Notes under the pieces: model-generated | What the model was told of the DNA's origin: nothing | Databases searched by the model: none | Seen by the model: the letters and a program-made list of their open reading frames with translations, nothing else | IMG/VR virus record: IMGVR_UViG_3300027861_002706 | Location: 1-64,000 of that record | Strand: one strand, 5' to 3' | DNA: 64,000 bases | Source of the DNA: a virus | Program-made: the position numbers and the translations under genes | In this document: positions 1,730 to 20,340 of the stretch, one piece after another | Position numbering within the stretch: the first letter of the stretch is position 1 | Layout: each line of letters opens with the position of its first letter

Positions 1730-2814
1730 GATATGATTTCTTCCAGTATCTTTTCAGGATTATGTGCTTTTCTTAGTTCTATTTTTGATTGGTCAGAGAT
1801 GTCTTTGTTCATTGCATAGTCAATTGAATCTTTAAGAGATAGCTGATTTGGGGATGCCCACCAGCTATCACTAGATGAATTACCATCAAAGACAGGAATC
1901 ATAGTATGATCATATATCTGCATGTAGCTTCCTATATCGCTACTCGATGTGTTATGAGTATGTGTGATTGGAACAGTTCCACATAGTGCAGATTGTATGA
2001 CTGTTTGATTTATTCCAGATGTTCTGCTGATATTAATCGAAGTAGAGCACGCGTTATACACTTGTGCTAATTCTTCATCCGCTAATGGGTTAGATAGAAG
2101 AACTATCCTAGGCCCATCCTTACTATTAGATCTCTGTCTGACTTGACTAATCATTTGAATGATAGCAGGATCATCTGCAGTGTTCATAGTATTCTTATAT
2201 GTTCTTAAGATTATGGTTAAATCATTTTGGGTATACTGCGAGCATAATACTTCAAGGACTTCTATTATGCTTGTGGCATCTGATTGTTTTCCCTGGATAA
2301 GAACAGCAGGTTTTCTATCTTCTATCCTAATACCATTTTCCCGGACAGTAACATTCGCAATATCTGCTTCACCTGAAATTTTGCCAAAGATATCTATATC
2401 TATTGGCTCATTAATGATAGCAACATCGCATTCAACGTTTGCTCTAATCGCTGAGGCATAGTCCTCTTCGGAAGTCACTAGAACTTTATCCATCATAGAA
2501 CATTTGCTTACCCATTCTTTTGGAATAGCTGATCCTTTGCCCCATGATATCCATCCTATATTCTTTGCTCCTTCATGTAAGGTCCAGAATTCTGGCGATT
2601 TCATATTAATACATACATCTGGATTTTCTAGTTTAGATTCACATGCTGTTTTAACATCATCGAGAAGTTCTGTTTGAATCATTATACATACAGGGTCATG
2701 TTTAATATTAGTTATTTTAAACTCATGTGAATCTTTATTGTGTTTAAACAAAGCCCTACATCTGGAACTGATAGAATTGGGAGAGTTTATATCTCCAGCA
2801 AGATGTATCTTCAA
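1726..2814 (-). CDS. Degenerate GT-B (GT4-like) glycosyltransferase
   Basis: GT4-like layout (DKVLVTSEED, NEPIDIDIF, LADEELAQVYNACS, SALCGTVPI), but the EGFGxxxxE motif is replaced by SGINQTVIQ. TTG start overlaps the upstream TGA. Confidence 0.65.
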   Translation of the reverse strand: MKIHLAGDINSPNSISSRCRALFKHNKDSHEFKITNIKHDPVCIMIQTELLDDVKTACESKLENPDVCINMKSPEFWTLHEGAKNIGWISWGKGSAIPKEWVSKCSMMDKVLVTSEEDYASAIRANVECDVAIINEPIDIDIFGKISGEADIANVTVRENGIRIEDRKPAVLIQGKQSDATSIIEVLEVLCSQYTQNDLTIILRTYKNTMNTADDPAIIQMISQVRQRSNSKDGPRIVLLSNPLADEELAQVYNACSTSINISRTSGINQTVIQSALCGTVPITHTHNTSSSDIGSYMQIYDHTMIPVFDGNSSSDSWWASPNQLSLKDSIDYAMNKDISDQSKIELRKAHNPEKILEEIIS

Positions 2815-4169: not shown

Positions 4170-4986
4170 TTAATTCCCTTTTAGCAGAGTTTATCCAGGA
4201 CTCAGGTAAGTCCTTTAACATGAATTTCTGATCACATATCCGATTAAACGGACAAGCAGAGCATTTAGATCTTGAAGTATTTGGCAGGTAAACGCCTTTT
4301 CTAATCAAATCTACTGTATTTGTACATGTCTGCAATGATATGTCAAGCATATATCTAGAAACCTTAGTAGAAATTCTAGGTATTCCAAAGTAAGAGAGGT
4401 ATCTGTGACCGTAAGGATATTCTATCCTATGAGATATGATGTTGTCTATGAAATATCTAGCTAATCCAACATCTATGTGGTCATAATTTTGTATATTCTT
4501 ATATGTTTTATCGTCTATCAACGAAGTAAATTCGTAAGATCTTTTTGATCTGTTGCCATCATTTCTTATGGTCATTAGATCTATCTTGCTCGAGACATGT
4601 AGATCTTCTCCTAGCTCAACAGTGAAAGGATAATTGAACATCGCTATGATGTCTTTACTTATGTCTATGTACTCTATAATAGTATTTATGACGATAAGAC
4701 CTTGAGCGTAGAGTTCGATAAGTCTCTGTGAATCTCTGCAGTTATTTGACAAAGAAGTAAATTTCTCTTTGAATGTTTCAGCTGCATCTGCTATAAAGGA
4801 CCTAGGATGCTTCCTTCTAAGACCCCACTCATTTGCTATGATGAAGAAGGCATCATGCATGGCTTCAACATAAATTTCATTGGCGTTAATTGGTTTGTAG
4901 GGTAAGTTTAGCTCATGTTTATATCTGTAATAAAGCCCGCAAAAAAGATAGTTTTTAATTTGTTCAGAACTGTAAATGTTACTCAT
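4159..4986 (-). CDS. PD-(D/E)XK/RecB-Cas4-like fold protein, probably nuclease-inactive
   Basis: N-terminal NYLFCGLYY and C-terminal CSACPFNRIC (Fe-S staple pattern) with SSKIDLM. The expected D/E-x-K is not evident (YEFTS). Confidence 0.6.
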   Translation of the reverse strand: MSNIYSSEQIKNYLFCGLYYRYKHELNLPYKPINANEIYVEAMHDAFFIIANEWGLRRKHPRSFIADAAETFKEKFTSLSNNCRDSQRLIELYAQGLIVINTIIEYIDISKDIIAMFNYPFTVELGEDLHVSSKIDLMTIRNDGNRSKRSYEFTSLIDDKTYKNIQNYDHIDVGLARYFIDNIISHRIEYPYGHRYLSYFGIPRISTKVSRYMLDISLQTCTNTVDLIRKGVYLPNTSRSKCSACPFNRICDQKFMLKDLPESWINSAKRELNGN

Positions 4987-5003
4987 GTTAGTTTGGAATT
5001 CGA

Positions 5004-7499: not shown

Positions 7500-8436
7500 A
7501 ATACATAATTTATTAGTAAATCCTTACGTTAAAGAGACCAGACGAGGTGGAGCAAGATACCCCAGTAGTTCTAGCACTACATATATAAATCAATATGGAG
7601 AAGATACAGTTGTAGGAACCTGCCTACGACGTCAATGGTACGCTTCTCAGGACTACGAAGAGACTGGTGAGAGGAATGCCGAGGGTACGATGAAGGCCCT
7701 TGCCGGTAACCTCTGGTCTCAGTTCCTAGTTGATAGAATCAAGGAGGCTGGATTCTGGTATGGGGACGAAACGAGCTTCTATAATGCGGAGCTAAATGTC
7801 TCCGGTAGAGTAGATGTCATAGTGGCCGAGGAGGGCACCAGACACCCCGTAGGAGTGGAGATCAAGACGGTTGGGACCTTTGTATCAAAGGGGGTCATCA
7901 AGCCCACAGCAGCCTACCCACTGGCTCCTAAGGAAGACCATGTTCTACAGACAATGATTTATCTATATCATTATAGGAATGCAATCAAGAAATGGGTATT
8001 ACTATATATGGATAGAAATACCATGGAGATGGCTGAGCATGTAGTAAGACTAGAAGAAGAAGACGGCTATCACTACCCTGTAATTTCCAATGAGATGGGC
8101 GTAAAAGAATGGAAACATATCAGGGTAGAAGATATCATTAGACGCTGGCAAGAATTAGAGATTCATATCAAAAATAAGACTTTACCAGAGAGAGACTATG
8201 AGCTACAGTATGCTAACTCTAAGATAGCTGCTATGTACAATACTGGCCGGCTCACTAAAACTGATTCTAAAAGAATCCAAAGAAGAGTAGAAGCTGGTGA
8301 AGTAGATGATAACAAGCCACCTCTACTGGAGAAAGGAGATTGGCAATGTCGATTTTGCCCGTTTCTTCAGGAATGTTATCGAGAAGAGATCGCACCAGAT
8401 CAGATCTCGAACGAACAGATGGATGCAACACTATGA
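7477..8436 (+). CDS. Cas4/RecB-like PD-(D/E)XK exonuclease
   Basis: GTCLRRQWY, SGRVDVI, VEIKT, QTMIY and CRFCPFLQEC (four-Cys Fe-S pattern). Confidence 0.85.
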   Translation: MASVALDRIHNLLVNPYVKETRRGGARYPSSSSTTYINQYGEDTVVGTCLRRQWYASQDYEETGERNAEGTMKALAGNLWSQFLVDRIKEAGFWYGDETSFYNAELNVSGRVDVIVAEEGTRHPVGVEIKTVGTFVSKGVIKPTAAYPLAPKEDHVLQTMIYLYHYRNAIKKWVLLYMDRNTMEMAEHVVRLEEEDGYHYPVISNEMGVKEWKHIRVEDIIRRWQELEIHIKNKTLPERDYELQYANSKIAAMYNTGRLTKTDSKRIQRRVEAGEVDDNKPPLLEKGDWQCRFCPFLQECYREEIAPDQISNEQMDATL

Positions 8437-8693
8437 GTAAGAAGAAACTTCGTACGGTTTATACTAAAGAACATGTGATTGAATCATATCGCGAGGGCTT
8501 AGTAGATGGCATGTCTAAGGGAGAAAGAGTATCTAGCGATATACTTAATCTATATGAAAGGATAAACACTATAAGAAAAGCACTAAAAGATTATGGATAT
8601 ATCCTACCAAACAATCAGCTGTCCTCTAAAGGTGAATCAATGCCAATGATCATTGCTATATTCGATGCTATTGATCTGAAAGAAGAAGAATAA
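8433..8693 (+). CDS. Hypothetical protein
   Basis: ATGA overlap with the nuclease stop gives MSKKKLRT..., a better start than 8340. Confidence 0.7.
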   Translation: MSKKKLRTVYTKEHVIESYREGLVDGMSKGERVSSDILNLYERINTIRKALKDYGYILPNNQLSSKGESMPMIIAIFDAIDLKEEE

Positions 8694-8694
8694 C

Positions 8695-9702
8695 ATGGAT
8701 AAAGTAGCAATAGTCACTGGTATTACAGGCCAGGATGGATCTTACCTAGCCGAACTTCTTATCTCTAAGGGATACACAGTAGTAGGAACAGTAAGAGCTA
8801 CAGTAACATCAAAGGATGAGAAGTTTAAGAACCTAAATAATATAATTGGTTCTCAAAAGCTCTTTTTAGAGTGCTGTGATATCTGTGACTATGGTGCTAT
8901 TGATAGAATAGTACGTAATTATAGTCCAGTAGAGATATATAATTTAGCTGCACAATCAGATGTAGGAGAATCCTTTAAGACTCCATTGGCTACATGTTCC
9001 ATGAATATGCTTGGCGTAGCAAACCTGCTAGAAGTTATACGGAATAATAATCCCGACATAAGAATGTATCAAGCATCTACATCAGAGATGTTTGGAGATA
9101 ATACTACCACTCCTCAAAATGAAGATACATTGTTCTCTCCAGTTTCTCCGTATGGAGTTGCTAAGTTAGCTGCTCACTACATGGTCAAAAGCTATCGTAG
9201 TTCATATGATATGTTTGCTGCTAACGGAATACTCTTTAATCATGAGAGCCCTCGTAGAGGTGAGAACTTTGTGACTAGAAAGATAACGAAAGCTGCTGCA
9301 AGGATAAAGCTAGGTAAGCAAGATAAGTTAGAGCTAGGCAACCTTGATGCGTTTAGGGACTGGGGATTCGCTGGAGATTATGTAAAAGCAATGTGGTTAA
9401 TACTTCAACAGGATGTACCAGATGACTTCGTAATAGCAAGCGGAGAAACTCATAGCGTGCGAGAACTTCTGGAGTTAGTGTTTAGACATGCTGATCTTAG
9501 TATAGTTGAACATGTGAATACAACAAGTGATTTGTATAGGCCAACAGAAGTACCGAAACTTTGGGGCGATCCCAGTAAAGCAGAAGAGCAATTAGGATGG
9601 AAAAGAGATATGGGATTTGAAGATCTTATTATACATATGTACGAAGAAGATCTTGTGAGAGAGTCGGGAAAAAATACTCAGTACAGTGATATTCTAATCT
9701 AG
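8695..9702 (+). CDS. gmd: GDP-mannose 4,6-dehydratase
   Basis: GITGQDGSYLAE, YNLAAQSDV, YQASTSEMFG, SPYGVAKL, NHESPRRGENFVTRKI, RDWGFAGDYV. Confidence 0.97.
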   Translation: MDKVAIVTGITGQDGSYLAELLISKGYTVVGTVRATVTSKDEKFKNLNNIIGSQKLFLECCDICDYGAIDRIVRNYSPVEIYNLAAQSDVGESFKTPLATCSMNMLGVANLLEVIRNNNPDIRMYQASTSEMFGDNTTTPQNEDTLFSPVSPYGVAKLAAHYMVKSYRSSYDMFAANGILFNHESPRRGENFVTRKITKAAARIKLGKQDKLELGNLDAFRDWGFAGDYVKAMWLILQQDVPDDFVIASGETHSVRELLELVFRHADLSIVEHVNTTSDLYRPTEVPKLWGDPSKAEEQLGWKRDMGFEDLIIHMYEEDLVRESGKNTQYSDILI

Positions 9703-10245
9703 ATGGCTAAAAGAAAAAGATATACTGTTCAAGAGATGAGAGCAATGGCTGCTCAAAATCAAAACGATTTTGATATGGTAGCCAAATGGAAAGGTTCTCA
9801 GTCTGACGTAGTAGAACAAAACATTAACTGCCTGGTCTGCGGCGCTCCTAATATAATGATAATTCATAGACATAATATGGTTAATGTAATGGGTGCTAAG
9901 TATCTCTGTGATGCTTGTACTGATTTTGGTTGGGCATGGATGGGTAATCTATGCGCAGAAGATCCAGAAGAAGCACGTCAAAGAGGCACTGTGATAGAGG
10001 AAGGTAGATCGATATCTACTCTAGAAGAGAACGCGAAGGCCGGGGGCGATCGCCTTGAAGCAAATGGAATGTTATTTGGCAGTAGAAAAAAGATTCAAAG
10101 TAGTAATCAGAATCCCACTGCAGCCTATAAGCCTATAAGAAACTTTGATGATGATACTCTTCTATTGCATCTATCTAAATGTAAACACCCCAGAGATATC
10201 GATGAAGGTAAGTCTTGGGAGCTTTGGATAGAAAAGAAGAGATGA
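9703..10245 (+). CDS. Hypothetical protein with CxxC...CxxC zinc finger
   Basis: NCLVCG ... LCDACT; abuts the gmd stop directly. Confidence 0.7.
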   Translation: MAKRKRYTVQEMRAMAAQNQNDFDMVAKWKGSQSDVVEQNINCLVCGAPNIMIIHRHNMVNVMGAKYLCDACTDFGWAWMGNLCAEDPEEARQRGTVIEEGRSISTLEENAKAGGDRLEANGMLFGSRKKIQSSNQNPTAAYKPIRNFDDDTLLLHLSKCKHPRDIDEGKSWELWIEKKR

Positions 10246-11216
10246 AGCTTTTGTATATGGCACAACTTGTCATGAATCCTATTGGTGGTGCTGAGATAAG
10301 CACTATCAATTTAATAGATAGTTTAAAATCCAACGGGGTAATTGTAGATTATATAGACTCTTCTAACGTAGAAAAGTTCAATCAAGATATAAGTATAATG
10401 GGTCCTGAAAAATATTTCAAAGACTATGATGCAATTTTAACTCAATTAAACTGGACAGGACAAGTATTAGACTTGGCAAAAGCGGCTGGGAAAAAAGCCA
10501 TATACTTTTTCCATAGCTGGGAACATATATGTAAAGTTGGTCACACTGGAATAATTCCATCTATATGTAATAGGATTTGTCGCCATTGTTTCTATAAGAA
10601 TAAAGAGTTTAAGCCAGATTATACTGTAGCAAACTCAGAATATACAAAAAAAATGCTGGAAGATCACTATGATATAAAAAGTGAGGTGATATATCCTTCA
10701 CTTAATCTAAAAGATTTTATATGTAAGGATCGTTCACCAGAGTATATTACTATGTCAAGACTGCATTATATGAAAGGCACAGATAGATTTATTAAAATAG
10801 CTAAACGAATGCCTGACCATAAGTTTAGGATAGTAGGCTATGGTAAAGAGGAGTGGGATGATGACATACCAGCGAACGTTACTGTATCTGGGCACCTAAG
10901 CCCTAAAGAATGCTACCAGGAAGCGTCTCTGTGGTTATCTCCTTCTAGATTCGATTCATTTGGAATGACAGTTATAGAAGCTCAACTAAATAATATACCT
11001 ACGATAGCAACAAATATATGCGCAGTAAAAGAAGATGAGACTGTCATGTTAGGATCTACTATAGATGACGGAGATGATATAGATGAATGGATAGAAAAGA
11101 TATCATATTGGAACAAGAAAGTAGATACGATAAAGCCGAGTAGGTCTATGCTAGAAAAATTTGTCACGACAGAATCGGGGGCTACTCTTATAAAGATTAT
11201 AGAAAACTTAACGTGA
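10242..11216 (+). CDS. GT4-family glycosyltransferase
   Basis: IGGAEIS, VANSEYT, VIYPS, KGTDRF, PSRFDSFGMTVIEAQLNNIP. ATGA overlap supports a start at 10242. Confidence 0.88.
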   Translation: MKLLYMAQLVMNPIGGAEISTINLIDSLKSNGVIVDYIDSSNVEKFNQDISIMGPEKYFKDYDAILTQLNWTGQVLDLAKAAGKKAIYFFHSWEHICKVGHTGIIPSICNRICRHCFYKNKEFKPDYTVANSEYTKKMLEDHYDIKSEVIYPSLNLKDFICKDRSPEYITMSRLHYMKGTDRFIKIAKRMPDHKFRIVGYGKEEWDDDIPANVTVSGHLSPKECYQEASLWLSPSRFDSFGMTVIEAQLNNIPTIATNICAVKEDETVMLGSTIDDGDDIDEWIEKISYWNKKVDTIKPSRSMLEKFVTTESGATLIKIIENLT

Positions 11217-12142
11217 AGATTTTACTGACACTTAATAAAACACTATCTAACGGGAAATCAAAATGGCTAGATAGTGGTTACTATAATGTATATCTACCCT
11301 TAAAAGATCTAGATCATGAAGTTTATCTTTGGGATACAGTAGAACCAGACAATCCTAACTATTCAAAAGTAGTTGAAGATTTTAAACCTGATTTGATATT
11401 TTGCTGTATTACTGGTGACCAAAGCTTGACACCTGCAGAACATCTTTGTATGGAAAGTATTTCAAAAGAGACAGAAAAAGGTAACTGCAAGACTTTTAAT
11501 TGGTTTTGCGACGATGTCTGGCGATTTGATAACTTCTCTAGTAAGATGTGTAAGCTATTTCATGTATGCTCTACTACAGAACCTAGCTATATCTCTAAGT
11601 ATAAAGAAATTGGATATAAGAATATTATATTAGGGGGATGGCATGTTAATAAGGATTTTCACTTAGCAACAAATAATAACAAGATACACGACATGGTCTT
11701 TATTGGGCATCTAAATAATCCAGAAAGAGTATGGCTTATAGATTACTTAAGGACTAGTAAGGTTGACATTAAAACTTTTCGAGGAGTAGACCATGGTGAT
11801 ATGGTTAGTAAAATGAGCCAATCTAAAATAGGTATAAACTTTAGTAAAAACTATTGTGGGTTTCCAGTCAAGACCCAAGTTAAATTAAGACCATTTGAAA
11901 TAGCTGCAGCAAATAGTCTAATATTTACTCAGTATCATAAAGATCTTGAATATTTTTTTGAGCCAGAGAAAGAAATGATTTGTTTTAAAGATGAAATAGA
12001 AATGCTCGATAAAGCTAAGTTTTTATTATCAAATCAAAATCAAATAAAAAGAATTACTAATAGCGGTAATGTTAGGTTTAATAACGAACATGAATCTCAT
12101 ATTAGAATGAAAAAAATACTGCAAGAAGCAATGGATAAATGA
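11213..12142 (+). CDS. CgeB-like (GT-B) glycosyltransferase
   Basis: NWFCDDVWRF, MVFIG, SKIGINFS, KLRPFEIAAANSLIFTQYHKDLEYFFEPEKE. Confidence 0.85.
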   Translation: MKILLTLNKTLSNGKSKWLDSGYYNVYLPLKDLDHEVYLWDTVEPDNPNYSKVVEDFKPDLIFCCITGDQSLTPAEHLCMESISKETEKGNCKTFNWFCDDVWRFDNFSSKMCKLFHVCSTTEPSYISKYKEIGYKNIILGGWHVNKDFHLATNNNKIHDMVFIGHLNNPERVWLIDYLRTSKVDIKTFRGVDHGDMVSKMSQSKIGINFSKNYCGFPVKTQVKLRPFEIAAANSLIFTQYHKDLEYFFEPEKEMICFKDEIEMLDKAKFLLSNQNQIKRITNSGNVRFNNEHESHIRMKKILQEAMDK

Positions 12143-13035
12143 AAATTTATATAAAAGACCATCCTTCTCATGCTGGTAAGTGGATATATCGTGGCTACTT
12201 TTCTGCCTGGAGTTTCTTAAAATACGAACCTGTTTTTTATAACAGCCTTGATATAGTTAAAGAACAAAACTATATGATCATGTCAACAGATTCCTCAGTA
12301 TCTCTTAAAGATTTAGATACAATAAGTAAATCTGAAAAATCTTTTATTTTTGTTCAGCCTAACTGCTTTCCAGATCCATGGGGAAAACATCCAAACTTTT
12401 ATTCTTGTTGCAAGGATGAAATTATAGACTCACTAAATAAAATGACAAATGTTATTTTATGGACTTTTCTAGATACTAAAGATGAATACTATAAAAAATG
12501 GGACAAAATTTATACCATTCCATTAGCATATGATTCACTAAACTATAGCAAGAATATAGAAAATAAATACAATTTCGATGTCTGCTTTATCGGTGGAATA
12601 GCAGACAATGGATTCAATGAAAAGTATAAAATAATGTGTGACCATTTTGATGTACTTAGAAACTCGAACCTGCAATGCGGAATTTTTATAAACAAAAACT
12701 TAAGTCACCAAGAAGAAAATGATATTATCTGTACCAGCAGAGTCACGTTAAACATACATGATGCGTACCAGAGAGAGCTAGGACTGGACACCAATGAAAG
12801 AACTTTTAAAAGTCTTGGATTGAATGGATGTTTGGTCAGCGATAAAGTTAATCAAATTTCAAGAATTTTTCCATATATACAAATGTCTAGTGATCCAAGT
12901 GAAATGCTAAATATAGTTCAGCACTATATTTCTATGAGAAGTGATCAACTTCAAGAGATAAAAGATAGTAATAGGGAATTGATAGCTAAAGACCATACTT
13001 ATATTGAACGAGTAAAGGAAATTCTAAAAAAATGA
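12139..13035 (+). CDS. CgeB-like (GT-B) glycosyltransferase
   Basis: DVCFIGG, SRVTLNIHD, TNERTFKSLGLNGCLVSD, HTYIERVKEIL. Confidence 0.8.
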   Translation: MKIYIKDHPSHAGKWIYRGYFSAWSFLKYEPVFYNSLDIVKEQNYMIMSTDSSVSLKDLDTISKSEKSFIFVQPNCFPDPWGKHPNFYSCCKDEIIDSLNKMTNVILWTFLDTKDEYYKKWDKIYTIPLAYDSLNYSKNIENKYNFDVCFIGGIADNGFNEKYKIMCDHFDVLRNSNLQCGIFINKNLSHQEENDIICTSRVTLNIHDAYQRELGLDTNERTFKSLGLNGCLVSDKVNQISRIFPYIQMSSDPSEMLNIVQHYISMRSDQLQEIKDSNRELIAKDHTYIERVKEILKK

Positions 13036-13760
13036 ATCCTAAAGTATCTATAATAATACCCTGCTACAATACAGAAAAGTATGTGGAGCAATGTGTATAT
13101 TCTGCTTTAGACCAAGACTATAAAAACATAGAGGTTATTGCTGTCGATAATGAAAGCACTGATACAACAAGGGATCTTTTGCTTGAAATACAAAAGAAGA
13201 GAATCGAACTAATAGTAGATGACGCACCAAATCTTCATAAGTACTCTTGGGATGAAGCAAGAAATGTAGCTTTAGAAAGATGTACTGGAGACTATATAAC
13301 TTTTATTTGCTCTGATGACTTCTTAGAAAAAGAATATATATCTACTTACGTGAAGTTTTTAAACGCCAATCCAGAGTATTTGGCTATGCAGAGCCCCATA
13401 AGGGGAGTACAAGATGGACAACCTACAAGCATTCAATCTCATTCCTATGGTTCATTAGAAAATTTTAAGCAGCAATGCCTACAGGGATGTCCAGTAAATA
13501 CACCTACCGTAATTTATAGTAAAAAACTGTATAATGATGGACTGTTAAAAACTTTCCCAGAAAAATACTACGGAGCAGCTGACTACGACTTATATTGCAG
13601 ACTAGCCGATAATGAAGTAATGATACATTTACTTCCCATGTGGATCGGCTATAACTATAGGTGGCATCCTGAGCAGTGCACGTGGGGAATGCATAAAGAA
13701 CCCGTTAGTTATGATCAGTTAATTCAGAATTACTGGAGAGATAAATGGACACAGGTTTAA
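13032..13760 (+). CDS. GT2-family glycosyltransferase
   Basis: VSIIIPCYN, VDNESTD, ARNVAL, ICSDDFL, AADYDLYCRL. Confidence 0.92.
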   Translation: MNPKVSIIIPCYNTEKYVEQCVYSALDQDYKNIEVIAVDNESTDTTRDLLLEIQKKRIELIVDDAPNLHKYSWDEARNVALERCTGDYITFICSDDFLEKEYISTYVKFLNANPEYLAMQSPIRGVQDGQPTSIQSHSYGSLENFKQQCLQGCPVNTPTVIYSKKLYNDGLLKTFPEKYYGAADYDLYCRLADNEVMIHLLPMWIGYNYRWHPEQCTWGMHKEPVSYDQLIQNYWRDKWTQV

Positions 13761-14353
13761 CCCCATCTGATTTAAGAGCATTTGAACTAAAAGTCTTTGA
13801 CTTATTTAAAAACAAGAAGATTAAATCCCCCATACATTTAAGAGGGGGAAATGAAGAGCAGCTAATAGAAATATTTAAGGGTATTAATCCGGAAGACTAT
13901 CTCTTTCTTACATGGGCTAGTCACCTGGAGTGTCTTTTAAAAGGTGTACCGGAAGAAGAAATACTAGAAGCCATACTTGCAAACAAATCCATATGTTTGT
14001 CATTTAAAGAATACAATGTACTGTCTTCTGCAATTGTTGGAGGCAATGCCCCTATAGCTACAGGAATTGCCCTGGGTTTAAAGCTGAACAGTAAAGAAAA
14101 CGGGGTGTGGTGCTTTGTTGGCGACATGTCTTTCTATACTGGCGCAGTACAGGAGAGCATTAGATACTCTGAAGTACATGATCTCCCTATAACTTTTGTA
14201 ATAGCAGACAATAAAAAGAGCGTAGAAACCCCCACGTCTGCTGTCTGGGGGACAGGCATAAAAGACTTGGCCGATAAATCAAATAAGTGTATCTACTATG
14301 AGTACGAAAATTACTTTTTGCACGCTGGAATTGGAGAGAAGGTACTCTTTTGA
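13745..14353 (+). CDS. Thiamine-pyrophosphate-dependent enzyme, short E1-alpha-like subunit
   Basis: IHLRGGNEE, SAIVGGNAPIATGIALG and a TPP-binding GDMSFYTG...FVIADN motif. Confidence 0.85.
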   Translation: MDTGLTPSDLRAFELKVFDLFKNKKIKSPIHLRGGNEEQLIEIFKGINPEDYLFLTWASHLECLLKGVPEEEILEAILANKSICLSFKEYNVLSSAIVGGNAPIATGIALGLKLNSKENGVWCFVGDMSFYTGAVQESIRYSEVHDLPITFVIADNKKSVETPTSAVWGTGIKDLADKSNKCIYYEYENYFLHAGIGEKVLF

Positions 14354-14877
14354 ATTACGCAGAAGAGCTTAAAAAAGCAATGCTTTATTTGTCAGAACAG
14401 CCAGACACTATATTCATTGGACAAAGCATGGAATATGGTGGAATTGCAATGGCAAGTTCATTTGACACGATACCAGCTGACAAGAAGATGGAGATGCCTG
14501 TAGCAGAAAATCTACAGATGGGTATATCTACCGGCTTAGCTCTAACAGGACATGTACCTGTATCAGTTTATCCAAGATGGAACTTTTTATTGCTAGCAGT
14601 AGACCAATTGGTAAACCACTTAGATAAATTGTCTGAAATGACTAGAGGAAAATATAATCCAAAAGTAATCATACGCGTTGCAGTTGGAGTCAAGTCACCA
14701 ATTGACCCGCAAGAACAACATGTAGGTGATTTTACTGAAGGGTTTAAAAGTATACTAAGAAATATAAATGTTGTTAAATTAAACAACGCAGAAGATATAA
14801 TGCGAGAGTATAAGAAAGCATACACTAGTGAAGATGGCGTATCTACCGTATTAGTAGAAGAGCATCAGTTTGCCTAG
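14350..14877 (+). CDS. TPP enzyme E1-beta-like subunit (pyrimidine-binding domain only)
   Basis: FIGQSM, EMPVAENLQMGISTGLAL, AVDQLVNH, VIIRV; only 175 aa, lacking the C-terminal domain. Confidence 0.85.
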   Translation: MNYAEELKKAMLYLSEQPDTIFIGQSMEYGGIAMASSFDTIPADKKMEMPVAENLQMGISTGLALTGHVPVSVYPRWNFLLLAVDQLVNHLDKLSEMTRGKYNPKVIIRVAVGVKSPIDPQEQHVGDFTEGFKSILRNINVVKLNNAEDIMREYKKAYTSEDGVSTVLVEEHQFA

Positions 14878-15706
14878 GGTTTTAATCACTGGAATAACAG
14901 GGTTCTTAGGTAAAGAACTAAAGGAGTACCTGTTTTCCTATGAAATCACAGGTATATCCAGATCAAGTGAGATCTCGATTGATCTTACAGACAGATCACA
15001 GGTAGATCTGTTCTTTAAATGCAATAGCTTCTTTGACTACGTCATACATACTTCTGTTGCCGGTGGTAAAAGAGGTGTTTACGACGACTACGATGTATTG
15101 TTGAAAAATCTATTAATGTTTGACAATATAATATCTAATAAAAGACACTTCGGTAAAATGTTTAATTTTTGTTCTGGCGCAGCATTCGGAAGATCAAACA
15201 ATGTAGTTCAGGAAAAAGAAGAAAACATTGGAAAGTATTGGCCTACAGATTACTACGGACTATCAAAAAATATAATAGCAAGAAAAATTAAGCAATTAAA
15301 TTACGTATATAATCTTAGATTATTTGGATGCTTTGGAAGACATGAGGGGTTCTCCAGATTCATCGGGTCTTATATCAGACAGATTAAATATGGTGAACGA
15401 CCAGTAATTCATCAAGACAAGCAGATGGATTTCATATCTGCACAAGATGTGTCAAAAATTATAGAATACTATATAGAAAATCAAGATCAAGATCTACCTA
15501 GAGACATTAACCTTGTCTACCCAGAAAAATTAAGGATACTAGACATAGCAAAAAAGATTGAAAGAATAACTGGTTCAGGTATACTATCTTTAATCCAAAA
15601 CCCTGGAATGGGAAACACATATACTGGTGATGGATCCAAGCTTCAGTTGCTAGGAATAGAATTAGATGGTTTAACAAAAGGAATTGAAGATTATGTCATC
15701 AAGTAA
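14870..15706 (+). CDS. NAD(P)-dependent epimerase/reductase (extended SDR)
   Basis: ITGITGFLG Rossmann motif, YGLSK (YxxxK), LRLFGCFG. Confidence 0.88.
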   Translation: MPRVLITGITGFLGKELKEYLFSYEITGISRSSEISIDLTDRSQVDLFFKCNSFFDYVIHTSVAGGKRGVYDDYDVLLKNLLMFDNIISNKRHFGKMFNFCSGAAFGRSNNVVQEKEENIGKYWPTDYYGLSKNIIARKIKQLNYVYNLRLFGCFGRHEGFSRFIGSYIRQIKYGERPVIHQDKQMDFISAQDVSKIIEYYIENQDQDLPRDINLVYPEKLRILDIAKKIERITGSGILSLIQNPGMGNTYTGDGSKLQLLGIELDGLTKGIEDYVIK

Positions 15707-17021
15707 AGACGATGTCTTAAAGGCTGTTAGAGAATTTTTCCGTGGTAAAAGTTCTAGCTGGGACAAAGAGAAAGACTGGGTAAAGTATTCAGGGCCGTCC
15801 TTTGACGAAGAAGAATATGTAGCAGCAGTTGAATCACTGTTATCAGAATGGCTCATATTTGGCAAATATGCTGCTGAGTTTGAGCGAGTTTTTCCAAAGT
15901 ACTTAGGTAAAAAGTCAGGGATCCTAACTAACTCTGGTAGCTCAGCCAATCTGTTAATGATGACAGCAGCTAAATCAAATAACTTGTATGGATTTGAGCC
16001 CGGAACAAAGATACTTACACCTGTAGTATGTTTTCCAACTACAATTAATCCGATTCTACAAAACGGGTTTGAACCCGTTTTTGTAGATGTAGAACTGCCT
16101 AGCTTAAATCTCAACTTAGATCATGTAGAAAGAAAGCTTGCTGAGTATCCTGACATAAAAGGTATTACTTTTGCCCATGTCTTAGGTAACCCTCCAGATA
16201 TGGAAAGACTTATGAGTATTGTAAAAGAACATAATCTAGTCTTTTTTGAAGATGCCTGCGACGCCCTGGGCTCATACTATGACGGCAATAAGCTTGGATC
16301 ATATGGACATATGTCTAGCTGTTCATTTTTCCCTGCCCATCATATGAGTATGGGGGAGGGGGGCCTTGTAGCCACCGACAATGCAAGAGCAAGGAAGGTT
16401 CTAACCTCCACACGCGATTGGGGAAGAGCCTGCTATTGCAATACTGCTAAGCCTGGAGACGTGACCTGCGAGACTGCCTGTGGTGACAGATTTAAGAACT
16501 GGCTGCCCGGTATGCCAGAGGTAACATATGATCATAGATATGTATTTGACGAAATTGGATACAATTTAAAGCCATTAGACCTGCAGGCAGCCATGGGATT
16601 AAAGCAATTAGACAAGTTGGAAAAGCTAGATGCTGCAAGAAGAAGCAACTATAAAAAATTATATAAAATATTCTCTAAATACGAAGAGTATTTTTATTTA
16701 CCAGAAGCAACTAAAAAGTCTGATCCATGTTGGTTTGGATTCTCTATAATTGTAAAAGACAACTCACCTTACAAAAGAGAAGATATAGTTAGACATCTGG
16801 AAGCAAACAGGATACAGACTAGATCCTATTTTAGTGGAAACATCTTAGCTCACCCAGGGTACAATCATATGGCCAAAGGACGTGACCTAGATAAGGAATT
16901 CCCTGTTGCAAAAAAGGTTACAGCAGATTGTTTTTTCCTTGGCACATTCATAGGGCTTACCGAAGAAAAGATAGACTACATAGAGGAAAAGCTAGATAGT
17001 CTACTCAAGGGAAAACAATGA
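15693..17021 (+). CDS. rfbH: NDP-4-keto-6-deoxyglucose 3-dehydrase (E1, PMP/[2Fe-2S]; RfbH/DdhC-like)
   Basis: NSGSSANLL, EDACDALGS, SFFPAHHMSMGEGG (His at the Schiff-base Lys position), RDWGRACYC...CGDRF, YDHRYVFDEIGYNLKPLDLQAA. Confidence 0.92.
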   Translation: MSSSKDDVLKAVREFFRGKSSSWDKEKDWVKYSGPSFDEEEYVAAVESLLSEWLIFGKYAAEFERVFPKYLGKKSGILTNSGSSANLLMMTAAKSNNLYGFEPGTKILTPVVCFPTTINPILQNGFEPVFVDVELPSLNLNLDHVERKLAEYPDIKGITFAHVLGNPPDMERLMSIVKEHNLVFFEDACDALGSYYDGNKLGSYGHMSSCSFFPAHHMSMGEGGLVATDNARARKVLTSTRDWGRACYCNTAKPGDVTCETACGDRFKNWLPGMPEVTYDHRYVFDEIGYNLKPLDLQAAMGLKQLDKLEKLDAARRSNYKKLYKIFSKYEEYFYLPEATKKSDPCWFGFSIIVKDNSPYKREDIVRHLEANRIQTRSYFSGNILAHPGYNHMAKGRDLDKEFPVAKKVTADCFFLGTFIGLTEEKIDYIEEKLDSLLKGKQ

Positions 17022-17965
17022 AAATAGTTTATGTAACAGGGTGTTTGGGTTTTATAGGATCCCACATAACGGCCAGATACTTAGATGAAGGATGGATGGT
17101 CTATGGTATAGATAAGTGTACTTACGCATCAAATACTGACCTTCTAGATAAGTTTAGGCAGTTTCCTAACTTTAGGTTTGAAAAAACTGATATAAAAGAT
17201 ATAAAACATTTATATGACTGCGACTACATAATAAATACTGCTGCAGAATCACATGTGGAAAACAGTATTATTAATAGCGATGAATTTATTAATAGTAATG
17301 TGCTTGGAGTAAAAAACTTACTTGATTTAATTAGAAATAAGGCAAAGAACTGTAATCCTAGACCAATAATGCTACACATTAGTACGGATGAGGTCTATGG
17401 AGACATCGAAAGCGGCAACCATACAGAAGAAAATTTGCTACGCCCTAGCAACCCATACTCGGCTGTTAAAGCTGCTGCAGACATGCTAGTGCTAGCATGG
17501 GCACGCACATATGGCATTGAATATATAATATTACGTCCTACTAATAACTATGGCATTGGACAATACCCAGAAAAGTTAATACCTTTATCAGTAAAAAATC
17601 TAATAAGAAATAAAAAGATCAGATTACATGATGAAGGAAGACCTATACGTAATTGGTTGCATGTAGAAGATACAACTGATGCCGTAATGAAAGTAATTGA
17701 ATCTGGCCAAGTAAATAATATATATAATATTGCAGGAGGATTTGAACAAACAAATGCCGATACAGTAAAAAAGGTTATATCTGCATATCATAATACTGAA
17801 GACTGGCAAGCCTATGTAGATTTCAATTATTCGCGTAAGGGACAAGACGTAAGATACGCCCTAGACGACACAAAAATAAAAGCTTTAGGGTGGGAACCTA
17901 AAAGGGTATTCGACGAAGAAATAAATCTAATTGTAAAGCACTACAAGGAAAATTTTATATGGTAG
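17018..17965 (+). CDS. rfbB: dTDP-glucose 4,6-dehydratase-like
   Basis: TGCLGFIG, AAESHV, STDEVYG, YSAVK, NNYGIGQYPEKLIP, RKGQDVRYALD. Confidence 0.9.
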   Translation: MKIVYVTGCLGFIGSHITARYLDEGWMVYGIDKCTYASNTDLLDKFRQFPNFRFEKTDIKDIKHLYDCDYIINTAAESHVENSIINSDEFINSNVLGVKNLLDLIRNKAKNCNPRPIMLHISTDEVYGDIESGNHTEENLLRPSNPYSAVKAAADMLVLAWARTYGIEYIILRPTNNYGIGQYPEKLIPLSVKNLIRNKKIRLHDEGRPIRNWLHVEDTTDAVMKVIESGQVNNIYNIAGGFEQTNADTVKKVISAYHNTEDWQAYVDFNYSRKGQDVRYALDDTKIKALGWEPKRVFDEEINLIVKHYKENFIW

Positions 17966-18813
17966 ATAGTAAAATGAAAACAGCATGCTTAATCTACGCA
18001 ACGAAAAGTTTCCACGAAAGGTTAGCTCATTGTGCACTTAGAAGTTTTAAAAAATGGCACCCAACTATCCCTGTAATAGGGGTTAAGACTGATCACGTTA
18101 CTCCTGATATAGAAATGTCAGAGTTGGACGAAGAGATGCTTATGGTTATAGGTATACGGAAATATGCTCTTGCAAGTAGAGCTATGAAAGAGAATAACCT
18201 AGATAAGATTATAATTCTAGGGTCTGATACTATTACCTGTGGAGTACTAGATGAATTTATAGACAATAACTCAGCAGACATCCTAGCAACTTTGGATTAC
18301 CCATACCCTATATCTACCGCCGTATTTAATGGACAAGGGTATGAACATTTAAATGCTGATGTTGTATGTTTTAACTCTACGGAAGCTATTGATAGTATTG
18401 TTGAAAGAAGCCCTGCGCACGGTCATTGGTGTGAGCAAGGTGGTTTAAATGAAGTGTACTATACATCTGGATTTAAATGTGAAACCGTAGACTCCCCATA
18501 TAATGAATCTAATGTTGCATATAATGTTAGATCCAAAGGTAATACAGTAGCATCCCCTATGACTCAATGGGAATACACTAATAAGTTTATAGTTAGAGAT
18601 TCTAAGTTACTCATACCTACTCCCACCTTACAAACTAGATTGAAGCATTTGAAAGTATGGCATTATTGTGAAGGGTTCGGATGTTTGGATTACACATCCC
18701 AGAAAGAACGTATGGATTATTGGTTTACTAAAGGGTTTAACGAAGAAACTAAAAAATTCTTTAAAGAAGAGTGTGATTGCGGGGATTTCTTTGATGGAGA
18801 TTTTACACTATGA
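17959..18813 (+). CDS. Putative GT-A fold glycosyltransferase (GT8/GT77-like)
   Basis: ALRSFKKWHP, IIILGSDTI (degenerate DxD), LNADVVCF, EQGGLN; operon context. Confidence 0.55.
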   Translation: MVDSKMKTACLIYATKSFHERLAHCALRSFKKWHPTIPVIGVKTDHVTPDIEMSELDEEMLMVIGIRKYALASRAMKENNLDKIIILGSDTITCGVLDEFIDNNSADILATLDYPYPISTAVFNGQGYEHLNADVVCFNSTEAIDSIVERSPAHGHWCEQGGLNEVYYTSGFKCETVDSPYNESNVAYNVRSKGNTVASPMTQWEYTNKFIVRDSKLLIPTPTLQTRLKHLKVWHYCEGFGCLDYTSQKERMDYWFTKGFNEETKKFFKEECDCGDFFDGDFTL

Positions 18814-19709
18814 AAGTAGTAGTTACAGGAGGCTCGGGATTTCTAGGAACTAGGCTTCAATTAAAAAACCCAGATTGGATTTATATTTCATCAAAAGACG
18901 CAGACTTAACCAATTATAATGAGTGTATAAACCTTTTCAACAAGTACACTCCCGACGCAATCATACACTTGGCTGCTAAAGTAGGAGGTATCAAGGAGAA
19001 TGCTACGAAACCTGCCGAATTCTATGATATTAATATACAGGTAAATACTAATGTTTTAAAAGCCTCATACAAGTGTGGCATTAAACGAGTTTTATCCTGT
19101 TTGAGTACTTGCACCTTCCCTGATGCAGTTTCGTCCTACCCTTTCTCAGAAGATAATATATTCGATGGACCTCCCGCTATTACTAATAGGGCTTACGGAT
19201 TCACAAAAAGGGCTTTGTACATTCAAACTCTAGCATATAGAGAGCAGTATGGAGTTAATTATTCCTGCTTCTGCCCTTCTAACCTTTACGGACCTAATGA
19301 TAATTTTGATTTGGAGTCTTCCCACTTCGTACCTGCTCTTATAAGGAAATTAGAAGAATCTGAAGATGGAGATAGTTTAGAGTTATGGGGAACTGGAAAT
19401 CCAAAGAGACAGCAACTTTATGTCGATGACTTAGCAGAGATCATCCCCATACTATTGGAAAAACATAATTCGGACATACCTCTTATCGTTGCACCGAATG
19501 AAAACTTTAGTATAAAGGAGATGGCAGATATCAGTAGATCTATAATAGGTCGAGAGATAACTTTCACATTCAATGGAAGCCTTGATGGACAGTTTAGAAA
19601 GGATGGGTCTAATGAAAAGTTTAAAGAGCTCGTCCCAGACTTCGAATTTACTTCTTTTAAGAAAGGATTAAAGCAAACTTATGAGTGGTTTAAAGAAAGA
19701 ACAAGATGA
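18810..19709 (+). CDS. fcl: GDP-L-fucose synthase
   Basis: TGGSGFLG, HLAAKVGGI, LSTC, YGFTK, PSNLYGPNDNF, SHFVPALIRK, WGTGNPKRQ. Confidence 0.93.
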   Translation: MKVVVTGGSGFLGTRLQLKNPDWIYISSKDADLTNYNECINLFNKYTPDAIIHLAAKVGGIKENATKPAEFYDINIQVNTNVLKASYKCGIKRVLSCLSTCTFPDAVSSYPFSEDNIFDGPPAITNRAYGFTKRALYIQTLAYREQYGVNYSCFCPSNLYGPNDNFDLESSHFVPALIRKLEESEDGDSLELWGTGNPKRQQLYVDDLAEIIPILLEKHNSDIPLIVAPNENFSIKEMADISRSIIGREITFTFNGSLDGQFRKDGSNEKFKELVPDFEFTSFKKGLKQTYEWFKERTR

Positions 19710-20340
19710 TTTTAATTGGGAGATGTACACCACCCTATACTATGAGAGAGAGATGGTAGAGGGACTCCAAAGACGGGATTCGCTCGACATGTTGGTAAAG
19801 AGTTCTTATGTTGATCGAGCCTTAGAGCCTAAAGTGGTATACTCGGATAACCTGCACTCTAATTGGAAAGAGTTATATAATCAGATATGTACGCTAGGGG
19901 TTAGCTCTGTCTTTGAATGTGGTACTGGATGTGCCCATCATTTAATTAACATATGCAAGCTTTGTCCTGAAATAATGATTAATGGTTGTGATTATTCCCA
20001 ATCTCAAATAGACTTAGGGTACAAGTATTTCTCCTTAATAGAGTATTCCTTTGCTAAAAGACTTAAGATAGTAGATATGACTACTCAAGAAGCTACAAAA
20101 GGACTACCTACCTCTGAATTTGTATATACGCAAGCTGTAACTATGCATCTAAGTTGGGATAGAGCTAAAAAGTTCTTAACTAATATGGGAAAGTTATCTA
20201 GTAAGTATGTCTATTTGATCGAAAATATTTATGCGCATGATTACTCCGCACTATTGAAAGAAGCTTTACCTGAGTTTGAAATAGCATCCGCTAATTCTGA
20301 TTATATTATAGGAGCAATCTTATTAAAGAGGAAAAGATGA
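19681..20340 (+). CDS. Class I SAM-dependent methyltransferase
   Basis: VFECGTGCAHHL motif I, GCDYSQSQI, VYTQAVTMH. Confidence 0.8.
   Translation: MSGLKKEQDDFNWEMYTTLYYEREMVEGLQRRDSLDMLVKSSYVDRALEPKVVYSDNLHSNWKELYNQICTLGVSSVFECGTGCAHHLINICKLCPEIMINGCDYSQSQIDLGYKYFSLIEYSFAKRLKIVDMTTQEATKGLPTSEFVYTQAVTMHLSWDRAKKFLTNMGKLSSKYVYLIENIYAHDYSALLKEALPEFEIASANSDYIIGAILLKRKR

Follow-up and report, generated by a model that had tools for sequence, protein, structure and literature searches.

Gene content of the locus

The window analyzed is a 64,000-nucleotide stretch (positions 1 to 64,000) of the IMG/VR virus record IMGVR_UViG_3300027861_002706. The full record is 117.6 kb and about 91% complete, and it encodes a primase-helicase as well as baseplate and virion proteins, which confirms that this uncultured virus is a tailed phage. 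Five genes on the + strand encode the two chains of a ThDP enzyme (TPP alpha and TPP beta), an SDR, an E1/RfbH-type 3-dehydrase, and an RmlB-type 4,6-dehydratase (Table 1). All junctions between them overlap by 4-29 nt, and the upstream GT2 gene overlaps the TPP alpha start by 16 nt. The original prediction that these are five coupled genes is therefore confirmed. The assignments rest on strong profile matches to real ORFs, and the lengths are conserved in more than 100 homologues, so this is not chance.

Table 1. Predicted sugar-related genes in and around the five-gene module (positions in the 64,000-nucleotide window)
Position	Strand	Length (aa)	Predicted product
8695..9702	+		GDP-mannose 4,6-dehydratase (Gmd)
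10215..13035	+	333, 309 and 298	Three soluble glycosyltransferase-like genes
13032..13760	+	242	GT2-family glycosyltransferase; candidate transferase for the product
13745..14353	+	202	Miniature ThDP enzyme alpha chain, PP (diphosphate-binding) domain only
14350..14877	+	175	Miniature ThDP enzyme beta chain, Pyr domain only
14870..15706	+	278	Extended SDR; inferred reductase of the acyl branch (YerF-like) or C4 ketoreductase
15684..17021	+	445	E1/RfbH/DdhC-type PMP- and [2Fe-2S]-dependent NDP-4-keto-6-deoxyhexose 3-dehydrase
17018..17965	+	315	RmlB-type NDP-glucose 4,6-dehydratase
17959..18813	+	284	Viral GT-A-like protein (GT8 / Nucleotid_trans-like)
18810..19709	+	299	GDP-L-fucose-synthase-like (Fcl-like) epimerase/reductase

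The alpha and beta chains are roughly half-size versions of E1 subunits. TPP alpha matched Pfam E1_dh (52 bits, E 6.5e-14) over profile positions 7-170 of 300, and its GDM...N ThDP/Mg motif (G126, D127, N156) is invariant in 42 homologues. The AF2 model of this chain has a pLDDT of 94.4, and its best PDB match is human PDH E1 alpha (TMq 0.79, TMt 0.45). TPP beta matched Transket_pyr over residues 14-170 of 175 at 22.7 bits, which is below the 27-bit cut-off, and the NCBIfam PDH E1 beta model NF006667 at 42.8 bits (E 3e-11). The cofactor-activating Glu of the beta chain aligns (“MPVAEN” against E1 beta “DTPISE”), and E53 and H124 are at least 95% conserved in 101 sequences.

The SDR matched Epimerase (83.7 bits) and has the GxxGxxG and YGLSK motifs, and its nearest Atlas clusters are generic NDP-sugar SDRs. 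The 3-dehydrase scored 449.8 bits against the NCBIfam RfbH equivalog NF011936 (cut-off 423) and matched the Yersinia E1 structure 3BCX (E 6e-96). It has the active-site His in place of Lys (“FFPAHH”) and the Cys of EDAC, CYC, and TAC, and the same residues are kept in 10 phage orthologues. The 4,6-dehydratase scored 306 bits against TIGR01181, below the 365 cut-off, compared to only 79 bits against the CDP-type TIGR02622. It matched PDB 2HUN (E 8e-68), and the catalytic STDEVYG and YSAVK motifs are kept.

Other genes nearby also encode sugar enzymes and glycosyltransferases. The GT2 gene matched Pfam Glycos_transf_2 (96.7 bits), and the three genes upstream of it gave Glycos_transf_1 and Glyco_trans_1_2 hits and have no TM-like segments. 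Gmd (PF16363, 406 bits) probably belongs to a second, separate sugar route together with the Fcl-like gene, which scored 196.5 bits against NF047922 (cut-off 500) and has a YGFTK motif. The 284-aa protein between the RmlB-like and Fcl-like genes had no Pfam or PDB sequence hit, but its Atlas feature and structure neighbors are viral clusters, some carrying PF03407 or PF01501.

Conservation of the module in phages and bacteria

Conserved gene neighborhood strongly supports the idea that the ThDP pair branches the 4-keto-3,6-dideoxy product of the RfbH-type 3-dehydrase. Eight related viral loci (L036-L043) were compared, and in all of them the GT2 gene lies upstream of TPP alpha, mostly directly. 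The order GT2-alpha-beta-(GT)-SDR-E1-RmlB is kept in the seven loci that extend past the pair; the eighth, L043, ends inside alpha. Alpha and beta are the best-conserved members (67-80% identity), while the SDR is syntenic in all close loci but only 37-41% identical. The RmlB-type gene is always adjacent to the E1-type gene in related loci (54-70% identity). Gmd is adjacent to the Fcl-like gene in L036, L037, and L042, and Gmd and the Fcl-like gene were not found in L038 and L039, although E1 and RmlB are never missing. The 284-aa gene is present in L040 and absent from most related loci. The same five genes also occur in a second arrangement, E1-RmlB-alpha-beta-SDR, in another locus, L079.

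In more distant lineages the same alpha/beta family is partnered with the other known kind of His-type 3-dehydratase, which is ColD-like, in about 37 phage loci. Among the more distant viral loci, the DegT-family gene nearest the pair carries His at the Schiff-base Lys position in 36, and in most of these it lacks the Fe-S cysteines and abuts beta (-28 to +8 nt). Its best PDB match is ColD (2GMS, 181.8 bits). The same triad occurs in 59 of 65 bacterial loci from Burkholderiales, SAR11, Verrucomicrobiota, Planctomycetota, and others.

Relationship to known ThDP enzymes

Pyruvate, branched-chain 2-oxoacid, and acetoin dehydrogenases have an E1 alpha2-beta2 component. The phage pair shares its fold and cofactor motifs: the PP domain has GD(G/M)...N and the Pyr domain has the activating Glu. 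However, the pair scores far below the PDH E1 equivalog cut-offs (72 against 394 bits for alpha and 43 against 321 bits for beta). The pair lacks the alpha C-terminal region and the beta transketolase-C domain that docks E2, and neither a Transketolase_C domain nor an E2 was found anywhere in the phage genome. Genuine E1 alpha chains found in 401 Bacteroidota genomes scored at most 132 bits against the family profile, compared to 291 bits for a true bacterial member. On a quick ML tree, the pair forms its own clade, across a long branch from the genuine E1 alpha chains sampled. Clustering with genuine dehydrogenases and occurrence without rfbH neighbors had been named beforehand as grounds for rejecting the branched-sugar reading; the pair does not cluster with the sampled E1 alpha chains, and it is almost never found without a 3-dehydratase neighbor.

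Two-subunit alphaKADH2 enzymes (AviB1/AviB2, Pau11/Pau12, AlmDI/DII, KbDH alpha/beta) occur inside actinomycete deoxysugar gene sets without E2 or E3 and are thought to move a pyruvate-derived C2 unit onto a keto-sugar; KbDH alpha/beta couples pyruvate to keto-sugar analogues in vitro (PMC12247030, PMC4425429). Those enzymes are full-size and belong to secondary-metabolite clusters. Pau11 and Pau12 are 325 and 345 aa (PMC4425429), and the phage chains are about 60% and 50% of that, with no beta C-terminal domain and a short alpha tail that carries its own conserved Y187/H193/G195 motif. The pair is thus a miniature form and not an enzyme of AviB1/AviB2 size, and its context is glycan genes of phages and Gram-negative or aquatic bacteria.

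In the yersiniose A pathway of Yersinia pseudotuberculosis (DdhA-D, YerE, YerF) and the related erwiniose, caryophyllose, and gastriose clusters, a 4,6-dehydratase and an E1-type PMP/[2Fe-2S] 3-dehydrase are followed by ThDP-dependent acyl addition to the C4 ketone and NAD(P)H reduction of the branch, and the sugar is destined for a glycan (PMC9306805). The logic of the phage module matches, and its 3-dehydrase is about 50% identical. However, YerE is a single-chain enzyme of the decarboxylase/AHAS superfamily, while the phage enzyme is a two-chain enzyme of the E1/transketolase fold. The phage dehydratase is RmlB-type rather than the CDP-type RfbG, there is no RfbF or E3 (DdhD), and the phage has only soluble glycosyltransferases and no Wzx/Wzy-type membrane proteins. 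In the colitose pathway (ColB/Gmd, ColD, ColC), the 3-dehydratase is of the ColD type that partners this ThDP family in other phages and in bacteria, whereas the enzyme in the window is E1-type with Fe-S cysteines. No ThDP step is known in colitose or forosamine biosynthesis. As with SpnQ, a TDP-sugar 3-dehydrase, the Fe-S dehydrase of the phage has no dedicated reductase gene and must use general cellular reductases.

Proposed pathway

We propose that the five genes form one phage-borne pathway that turns a host NDP-glucose into an NDP-linked 4-C-acyl-branched 3,6-dideoxyhexose by yersiniose-type chemistry. In this view, the RmlB-type enzyme would make NDP-4-keto-6-deoxy-D-glucose, and the E1-type dehydrase would remove the 3-OH to give NDP-4-keto-3,6-dideoxyglucose, with electrons from a host flavodoxin or ferredoxin reductase. 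The alpha/beta enzyme would then decarboxylate a 2-oxo acid (pyruvate is the default guess) and add the resulting acyl-anion equivalent to the C4 ketone, creating a tertiary alcohol with an acetyl-type branch. The SDR would reduce the branch carbonyl, and the GT2 and other soluble glycosyltransferases would put the sugar on a cytoplasmic acceptor, probably virion protein. YerE acting on CDP-4-keto-3,6-dideoxyglucose and alphaKADH2 enzymes branching keto-sugars provide the precedent (PMC9306805, PMC12247030, PMC4425429). The sequences themselves establish the gene identities, the intact catalytic and cofactor motifs, the translational coupling, and the conserved synteny, while every chemical step, the order of the last two reactions on the sugar, the nucleotide, the acyl donor, the role of the SDR, and the acceptor are inferred. 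We consider this reading more likely than not, on comparative evidence only and in the absence of biochemical data for any member of this miniature family.

The original interpretation, that a ThDP pair branches the product of RfbH, is thus partly supported. Its description of the five genes as a complete route overstates the case: the 117.6-kb genome has no nucleotidyltransferase, ferredoxin, or FNR-type reductase, so the nucleotidyltransferase and the electron donor for the Fe-S dehydrase must come from the host. Its proposals of pyruvate as donor, a dTDP nucleotide, and a YerF-like SDR remain assumptions. The E1-type enzyme is much closer to the CDP-specific Yersinia E1 (325 bits) than to an actinomycete NDP-type 3-dehydratase (9WVY, 135 bits), yet the dehydratase beside it is RmlB-type, so the nucleotide pairing is odd.

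A dehydratase, an E1, and an SDR of roughly 280 aa is exactly the canonical route to 3,6-dideoxyhexoses such as abequose or paratose. The phage SDR has no diagnostic match either way and could equally be a C4 reductase like RfbS/RfbJ, which would give an unbranched sugar. The alpha/beta pair might then supply an acyl or aldehyde unit, or decorate the glycan after glycosyl transfer, as was proposed for AviB1/B2 and Pau enzymes (PMC4425429). We regard this as unlikely, although it is the strongest alternative. It does not explain why alpha/beta is locked between the GT2 and the SDR in every relative, or why in other lineages it abuts a ColD-type 3-dehydratase, with no SDR directly adjacent in the one locus annotated in detail, L079. 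Post-transfer branching would still be C-branching of the same 4-keto sugar, and so a variant of the proposed pathway.

The pair could also work like a small transketolase or DXS, making or extending a sugar phosphate that is activated later. In bacteria it sits in a cassette with a GHMP kinase, a SIS isomerase, and a nucleotidyltransferase, and most ColD-linked viral loci and the fused cyanophage forms have a heptose-type kinase nearby. One homologue, P0193, is an APH-kinase-alpha fusion, and weak DXP_synthase_N and transketolase hits occur. However, the window has no kinase, isomerase, or nucleotidyltransferase, and neither do its seven close relatives apart from one SIS-like match in L041, so the phage could not activate a sugar-phosphate product. 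The kinase, SIS, and nucleotidyltransferase genes are fully explained as GDP-heptose activation steps upstream of a 4,6-dehydratase and a ColD-like enzyme, and this alternative appears improbable.

Least likely is branching of a different keto-sugar, in which the pair would act at C3, or on the 4-keto-6-deoxy product of the RmlB-like enzyme or Gmd before or without 3-deoxygenation, and the E1 product would go to another sugar. AlphaKADH2 enzymes branch at C3 or C4 of various TDP-keto-sugars (PMC12247030), and the window also encodes Gmd. The fused cyanophage homologues have 4,6-dehydratase-like SDRs but no 3-dehydratase within 9 kb, and the acceptor of the family is therefore not always a 3-deoxy sugar, which, like the heptose-type kinases that travel with the pair in other lineages, also counts against the proposed pathway. 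On the other hand, a His-type 3-dehydratase lies within a few kb of the pair, and usually abuts it, in nearly all of the more than 100 loci examined, and Gmd and the Fcl-like gene were not found in some related loci (L038, L039) that keep E1 and RmlB.

Two different 3-dehydratase types, both making 4-keto-3,6-dideoxy sugars, are thus partnered with this ThDP family. The phage probably uses the module to build a rare deoxy-sugar with an extra carbon side branch, through a miniature two-chain ThDP enzyme that recurs beside sugar 3-deoxygenating enzymes in many other phages and aquatic bacteria.

Gene Content and Enzyme Anatomy

The window is the first 64 kb of an IMG/VR virus record that is 117.6 kb long and was rated about 91% complete. 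It carries a primase-helicase, and a long minus-strand block encodes virion and baseplate proteins. The five genes named in the original prediction are present and coupled, every junction overlapping by 4-29 nt, so that the observation is confirmed. They lie within a longer operon on the opposite strand to the virion block. The coordinates of these features and of features in related loci are collected in the table.

Coordinates of features in the phage window and in related viral and bacterial loci
Feature	Sequence	Position	Strand	Size
Glycan region examined for TM-like segments (20 proteins)	Window	1726-20340
Operon	Window	5004-20340	+
Unknown protein	Window	9703-10245		180 aa
Five-gene module (alpha, beta, SDR, RfbH-like, RmlB-like)	Window	13745-17965	+
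Miniature ThDP alpha chain	Window	13745-14353		202 aa
Viral GT-A-like protein	Window	17959-18813		284 aa
Methyltransferase-like protein	Window	19681-20340		219 aa
Sulfotransferase-domain protein	L004 (= L036, related phage)	4329-6335		668 aa
Two different alpha/beta pairs	L079 (phage contig)	1-11319
Fused alpha-beta gene SSM2_198	L001 (Synechococcus phage S-SM2)	8992-10200
Fused alpha-beta gene gp190	L002 (Prochlorococcus phage P-TIM68)	9049-10194
GHMP kinase-alpha-beta-ColD-like cassette	L089 (bacterial locus)	6419-15000
GHMP kinase-alpha-beta-ColD-like cassette	L086 (bacterial locus)	4537-11315

E1 (RfbH/DdhC) is a DegT-fold 3-dehydrase in which His220 of the Yersinia enzyme replaces the Schiff-base Lys of PLP aminotransferases, and its [2Fe-2S] cluster is bound by the motif C-X57-C-X-C-X7-C. 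The 445-aa phage protein passes the NCBI RfbH equivalog cut-off (NF011936, 449.8 against 423 bits) and aligns end to end with Yersinia E1 (PDB 3BCX, E 6e-96, residues 29-439). The phage sequence SFFPAHHMSMGEGG aligns with SFYPAHHITMGEGG of E1, and the H220K mutant entry 3BB8 shows K at the first H. The Cys residues of EDAC, CYC and TAC, the presumed [2Fe-2S] ligands, are all present, with a six-residue insertion that lengthens the last spacer. The same features hold in ten phage orthologues. A dedicated E3 (DdhD/AscD) reductase and a CDP-sugar supply (RfbF, RfbG), however, are missing: the 117.6-kb genome has no Fer2, NAD_binding_1 or NTP_transferase match, and thus no plant-type ferredoxin, FNR-type reductase or nucleotidyltransferase. 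NDP-glucose and the electrons for the Fe-S dehydrase must therefore come from the host, and the description of the route as complete in the original prediction is too strong.

The 315-aa protein is an extended SDR closest to dTDP-glucose 4,6-dehydratase. It scores 306.2 bits against TIGR01181, below the equivalog cut-off of 365.1, and only 79 bits against the CDP-glucose type (TIGR02622). The catalytic Thr-Asp-Glu and YxxxK motifs are kept, as STDEVYGD and YSAVKAA align to PDB 2HUN. The 278-aa extended SDR keeps GxxGxxG and YGLSK, and only generic NDP-sugar SDRs were found as its neighbours. On sequence alone it may be a YerF-type reductase of an acyl branch, but it may equally be an RfbS/RfbJ-like C4 reductase, which would give an ordinary dideoxyhexose.

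Genuine 2-oxoacid dehydrogenase E1 enzymes (PDH, BCKDH, acetoin DH) have a full-length alpha chain (about 320-370 aa) and a beta chain with a transketolase-C domain. The phage alpha chain matches only the ThDP-binding half of E1 alpha (Pfam E1_dh, E 6.5e-14, profile positions 7-170 of 300). Its GDM...N ThDP/Mg motif is invariant in 42 homologues. The predicted structure (pLDDT 94.4) superimposes on roughly the N-terminal half of human PDH E1 alpha (TMq 0.79, TMt 0.45). The chain ends about 45 residues after the motif, in a tail with its own conserved Y187/H193/G195. The 175-aa beta chain matches only the pyrimidine-binding domain of E1 beta or transketolase, and it keeps the cofactor-activating Glu (E53) and a His (H124) in at least 95% of 101 sequences. 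The genome has no transketolase-C domain (PF02780), no E2 acyltransferase (PF00198), no second DegT gene and only four extended SDRs. Annotation of the pair as a PDH auxiliary metabolic gene was therefore rejected. Pseudogenes or truncation by mis-calling were also rejected, because lengths and motifs are conserved in more than 100 homologues and natural alpha-beta fusions of about 400 aa exist.

Surrounding Genes

Upstream of the module lie Gmd, an unknown 180-aa protein with several Cys pairs and no family match, three GT-B-like glycosyltransferases and a GT2. Downstream lie a viral GT-A-like protein, an Fcl-like SDR and a methyltransferase-like protein. The 284-aa GT-A-like protein has no Pfam or PDB sequence match. 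Its Atlas neighbours by features and by structure are viral clusters, some carrying Nucleotid_trans or GT8 domains, and it is probably another GT-A glycosyltransferase, inserted in this phage and in the related viral locus L040 only. The 219-aa protein has a class-I methyltransferase-like glycine motif and a weak hit to a pseudaminic-acid-associated methylase (19 bits), and it is also found after the Fcl-like gene in related locus L042. The glycan operon of a related phage (L036) holds a protein with a sulfotransferase domain, which hints at a sulfated glycan in that relative.

None of the 20 proteins examined in the glycan region, including at least six glycosyltransferase-like proteins, has a TM-like hydrophobic segment, and there is no Wzx, Wzy or polyprenyl-phosphate transferase. 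This argues for a cytoplasmic acceptor, probably virion protein or DNA, rather than an undecaprenyl-linked export pathway.

Related Viral Loci

The alpha chain has more than 2,500 metagenomic relatives, nearly all 198-206 aa. In a library clustered at 50% identity, 339 clusters match at E up to 1e-10. Most of the best 150 are about 200 aa, and a few are natural alpha-beta fusions. Among homologues of the alpha chain, two are interrupted by inteins or homing-endonuclease domains (Intein_splicing/Hint in P0147, LAGLIDADG in P0167), and one (P0193) has an N-terminal APH-type kinase domain fused to alpha. Megablast of the operon against the phage collection found no match.

Eight IMG/VR contigs carry alpha at 67-78% identity. 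Seven of these show GT2-alpha-beta-(GT)-SDR-E1type-RmlB-like, and the eighth (L043) ends inside alpha. Fcl-like and Gmd are often nearby but were not found in two loci. The five-gene unit of the original prediction is therefore the conserved core, while Gmd and Fcl-like look like a second, GDP-fucose-type route. A colitose-type reading (Gmd, then RfbH, then Fcl-like) was considered and rejected, because the dehydrase is E1-type and always adjacent to the RmlB-like gene and because Gmd and Fcl-like were not found in some related loci.

Thirty-seven further viral loci carry alpha at 45-53% identity, and alpha is always followed by beta. In 36 of the 37 (the other, L070, ends about 800 bp after beta), the nearest DegT-family gene has His at the Lys position. 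In most of these loci it has no Fe-S cysteines and starts within -28 to +8 nt of the end of beta. Its best solved relative is ColD, the Fe-S-independent GDP-4-keto-6-deoxymannose 3-dehydratase (2GMS, 181.8 bits). Some phage contigs (L079 and L050/L051) carry two different alpha/beta pairs. One pair sits beside E1-type, RmlB-like and SDR genes, in L079 as E1type-RmlB-alpha-beta-SDR. The other sits between a B12-binding radical SAM enzyme and a ColD-like dehydratase with an RmlC-like epimerase, followed by phosphoribosyltransferase- and PNP/UDP-phosphorylase-family genes.

Cyanophage genes annotated "transketolase central region-containing protein" in S-SM2 and P-TIM68 are fused alpha-beta members of this miniature family. 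They sit in heptose-type sugar islands beside a Zn-ADH and a carbohydrate kinase, with no DegT gene within 9 kb. In these fused forms, branching of a 4-keto-6-deoxy sugar would have to occur without 3-deoxygenation, and, as a less likely rival to the main reading, the window's pair may also act in this way.

Bacterial Loci and Phylogeny

Scans of genome contigs with the window's alpha chain and with protein P0203 found nothing, and a scan with protein P0056 found only genuine E1 alpha. A scan with RfbH gave only relatives at 40-42%, with no TPP pair nearby. Plasmids hold only genuine E1 alpha, at under 31% identity. A sample of 401 Bacteroidota genomes held only genuine E1 alpha, scoring at most 132 bits in frames of 330-450 aa, and the top full-coverage hit, the one example checked, was a PDH E1a-E1b-E2 operon. 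A sample of 401 Pseudomonadota genomes held one true member, at 291 bits, in the arrangement GHMP kinase-alpha-beta-ColD-like-nucleotidyltransferase-SIS-SDR-GT.

Using that alpha as query found 65 bacterial loci, from Burkholderiales, Pelagibacteraceae single cells, Verrucomicrobiota, Planctomycetota, Chitinophagaceae, Acidobacteriota and Gemmatimonadota. Of these, 59 have a His-type ColD-like gene beside the pair, and three of the other six are truncated. A cassette of GHMP kinase, miniature TPP alpha, beta, His-type ColD-like dehydratase, nucleotidyltransferase, SIS isomerase, SDR and B12-radical-SAM is conserved across Burkholderiales (Piscinibacter, Massilia, Sphaerotilus), SAR11 single cells, Verrucomicrobiota, Planctomycetota and others. 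It looks like a route to a branched, possibly C-methylated 3,6-dideoxy-heptose.

A quick maximum likelihood tree, from a fast rather than a careful search and with a Bacteroidota-only outgroup, puts all 105 sequences of the miniature family across a long branch from 20 genuine E1 alpha chains. It resolves the window's clade (8 rows, support 100), a viral ColD-linked clade (27 rows) and a bacterial clade (62 rows).

The company of the pair with heptose-type kinases in bacteria, in ColD-linked phages and in the two cyanophages, together with the APH-kinase-alpha fusion, suggests that the pair may work at the sugar-phosphate level. The window has no kinase, isomerase or nucleotidyltransferase, and its seven close relatives have none apart from one SIS-like match in L041. 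That reading therefore does not fit this clade. In the other clades, those genes are explained as the GDP-heptose activation steps upstream of a ColD-like enzyme.

Proposed Pathway and Comparison with Characterized Systems

E1-type and ColD-type 3-dehydratases are non-orthologous, but both yield NDP-4-keto-3,6-dideoxy sugars, which is the acceptor class used by YerE (PMC9306805). Their repeated and often abutting linkage to one ThDP enzyme family is the strongest available evidence that this family acts on that product. The pair has both domains needed for a ThDP active site, and it lacks what a dehydrogenase complex needs. We therefore read the module as 4,6-dehydration, 3-deoxygenation, ThDP-dependent acyl addition at C4, reduction of the branch and glycosyl transfer by the GT2. 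Gene identities, motifs and gene order were read from the sequences, whereas every chemical step, including carboligation by the pair, is inferred, as are the donor and the nucleotide. Pyruvate is the only donor seen so far for alphaKADH2 enzymes, while longer 2-oxo acids serve some YerE-like enzymes (PMC12247030). The dehydrase is nearest to a CDP-specific enzyme, while the dehydratase is RmlB-type. The interpretation in the original prediction, a branched-sugar route using a two-subunit TPP enzyme, is partly supported: it is the best-supported reading, although it is not proven.

Functionally, the proposed module parallels the yersiniose A pathway. YerE is a single chain of about 550-600 aa with TPP_enzyme_N/M/C domains. 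The best families for the phage pair are E1_dh and Transket_pyr, and TPP_enzyme_C gives only a weak 25-bit local hit over the ThDP motif, so its ThDP enzyme belongs to the E1/transketolase fold and not to the YerE (decarboxylase) superfamily. The nearest described analogues are the two-subunit alphaKADH2 enzymes of actinomycete antibiotic clusters (AviB1/B2, Pau11/12 and KbDH alpha/beta), which are so far reported from secondary-metabolite clusters (PMC12247030). As in these systems, the phage pair is a two-chain E1-like ThDP enzyme encoded among NDP-keto-sugar-forming genes without E2 or E3. Pau11 and Pau12 are full-size, at 325 and 345 aa (PMC4425429), and comparable subunit size is not found in the phage pair. 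Literature searches found no phage example of ThDP sugar branching or of rfbH, and no paper describing such an enzyme in a virus, although we cannot exclude that a survey reported to cover alphaKADH2 clusters (Krug et al., 2024, Angew. Chem. e202403535) already lists some bacterial members. On this reading the chemistry is known, and what is new is the miniature two-chain ThDP enzyme, the pairing of an E1-type dehydrase with an RmlB-type dehydratase, and the phage carrier.

More tentatively, the pair may represent an unrecognized and widespread lineage of miniature heterodimeric ThDP carboligases, a further, independently evolved class of sugar C-branching enzyme beside YerE-like, alphaKADH2 and split-transketolase types. 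It would be habitually partnered with PMP-dependent 3-dehydratases of both E1 and ColD type, in marine and freshwater phages and in abundant aquatic bacteria (SAR11, Verrucomicrobiota, Planctomycetota, Burkholderiales). In this view, the phage would use it to make a new branched dideoxy sugar that it attaches in the cytoplasm to its own virion proteins.

C-branched deoxysugars are rare, immunologically distinctive components of bacterial surfaces and antibiotics, and only a few enzyme types are known to make the branch. If the proposed pathway holds, viruses encode this chemistry themselves; a 2025 review of such enzymes names viruses only as an unexplored source (PMC12247030). A much smaller ThDP carboligase would also exist, with 377 aa in two chains against about 670 aa for Pau11 and Pau12 together, which would be attractive for biocatalysis of tertiary alcohols and for structural work. 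Routine annotation of these genes as "pyruvate dehydrogenase E1" or "transketolase" auxiliary metabolic genes would be corrected. The same pair would mark an undescribed sugar cassette in some of the most abundant aquatic bacteria, including SAR11, which would make the composition of their surface glycans, and phage-host recognition there, directly testable.
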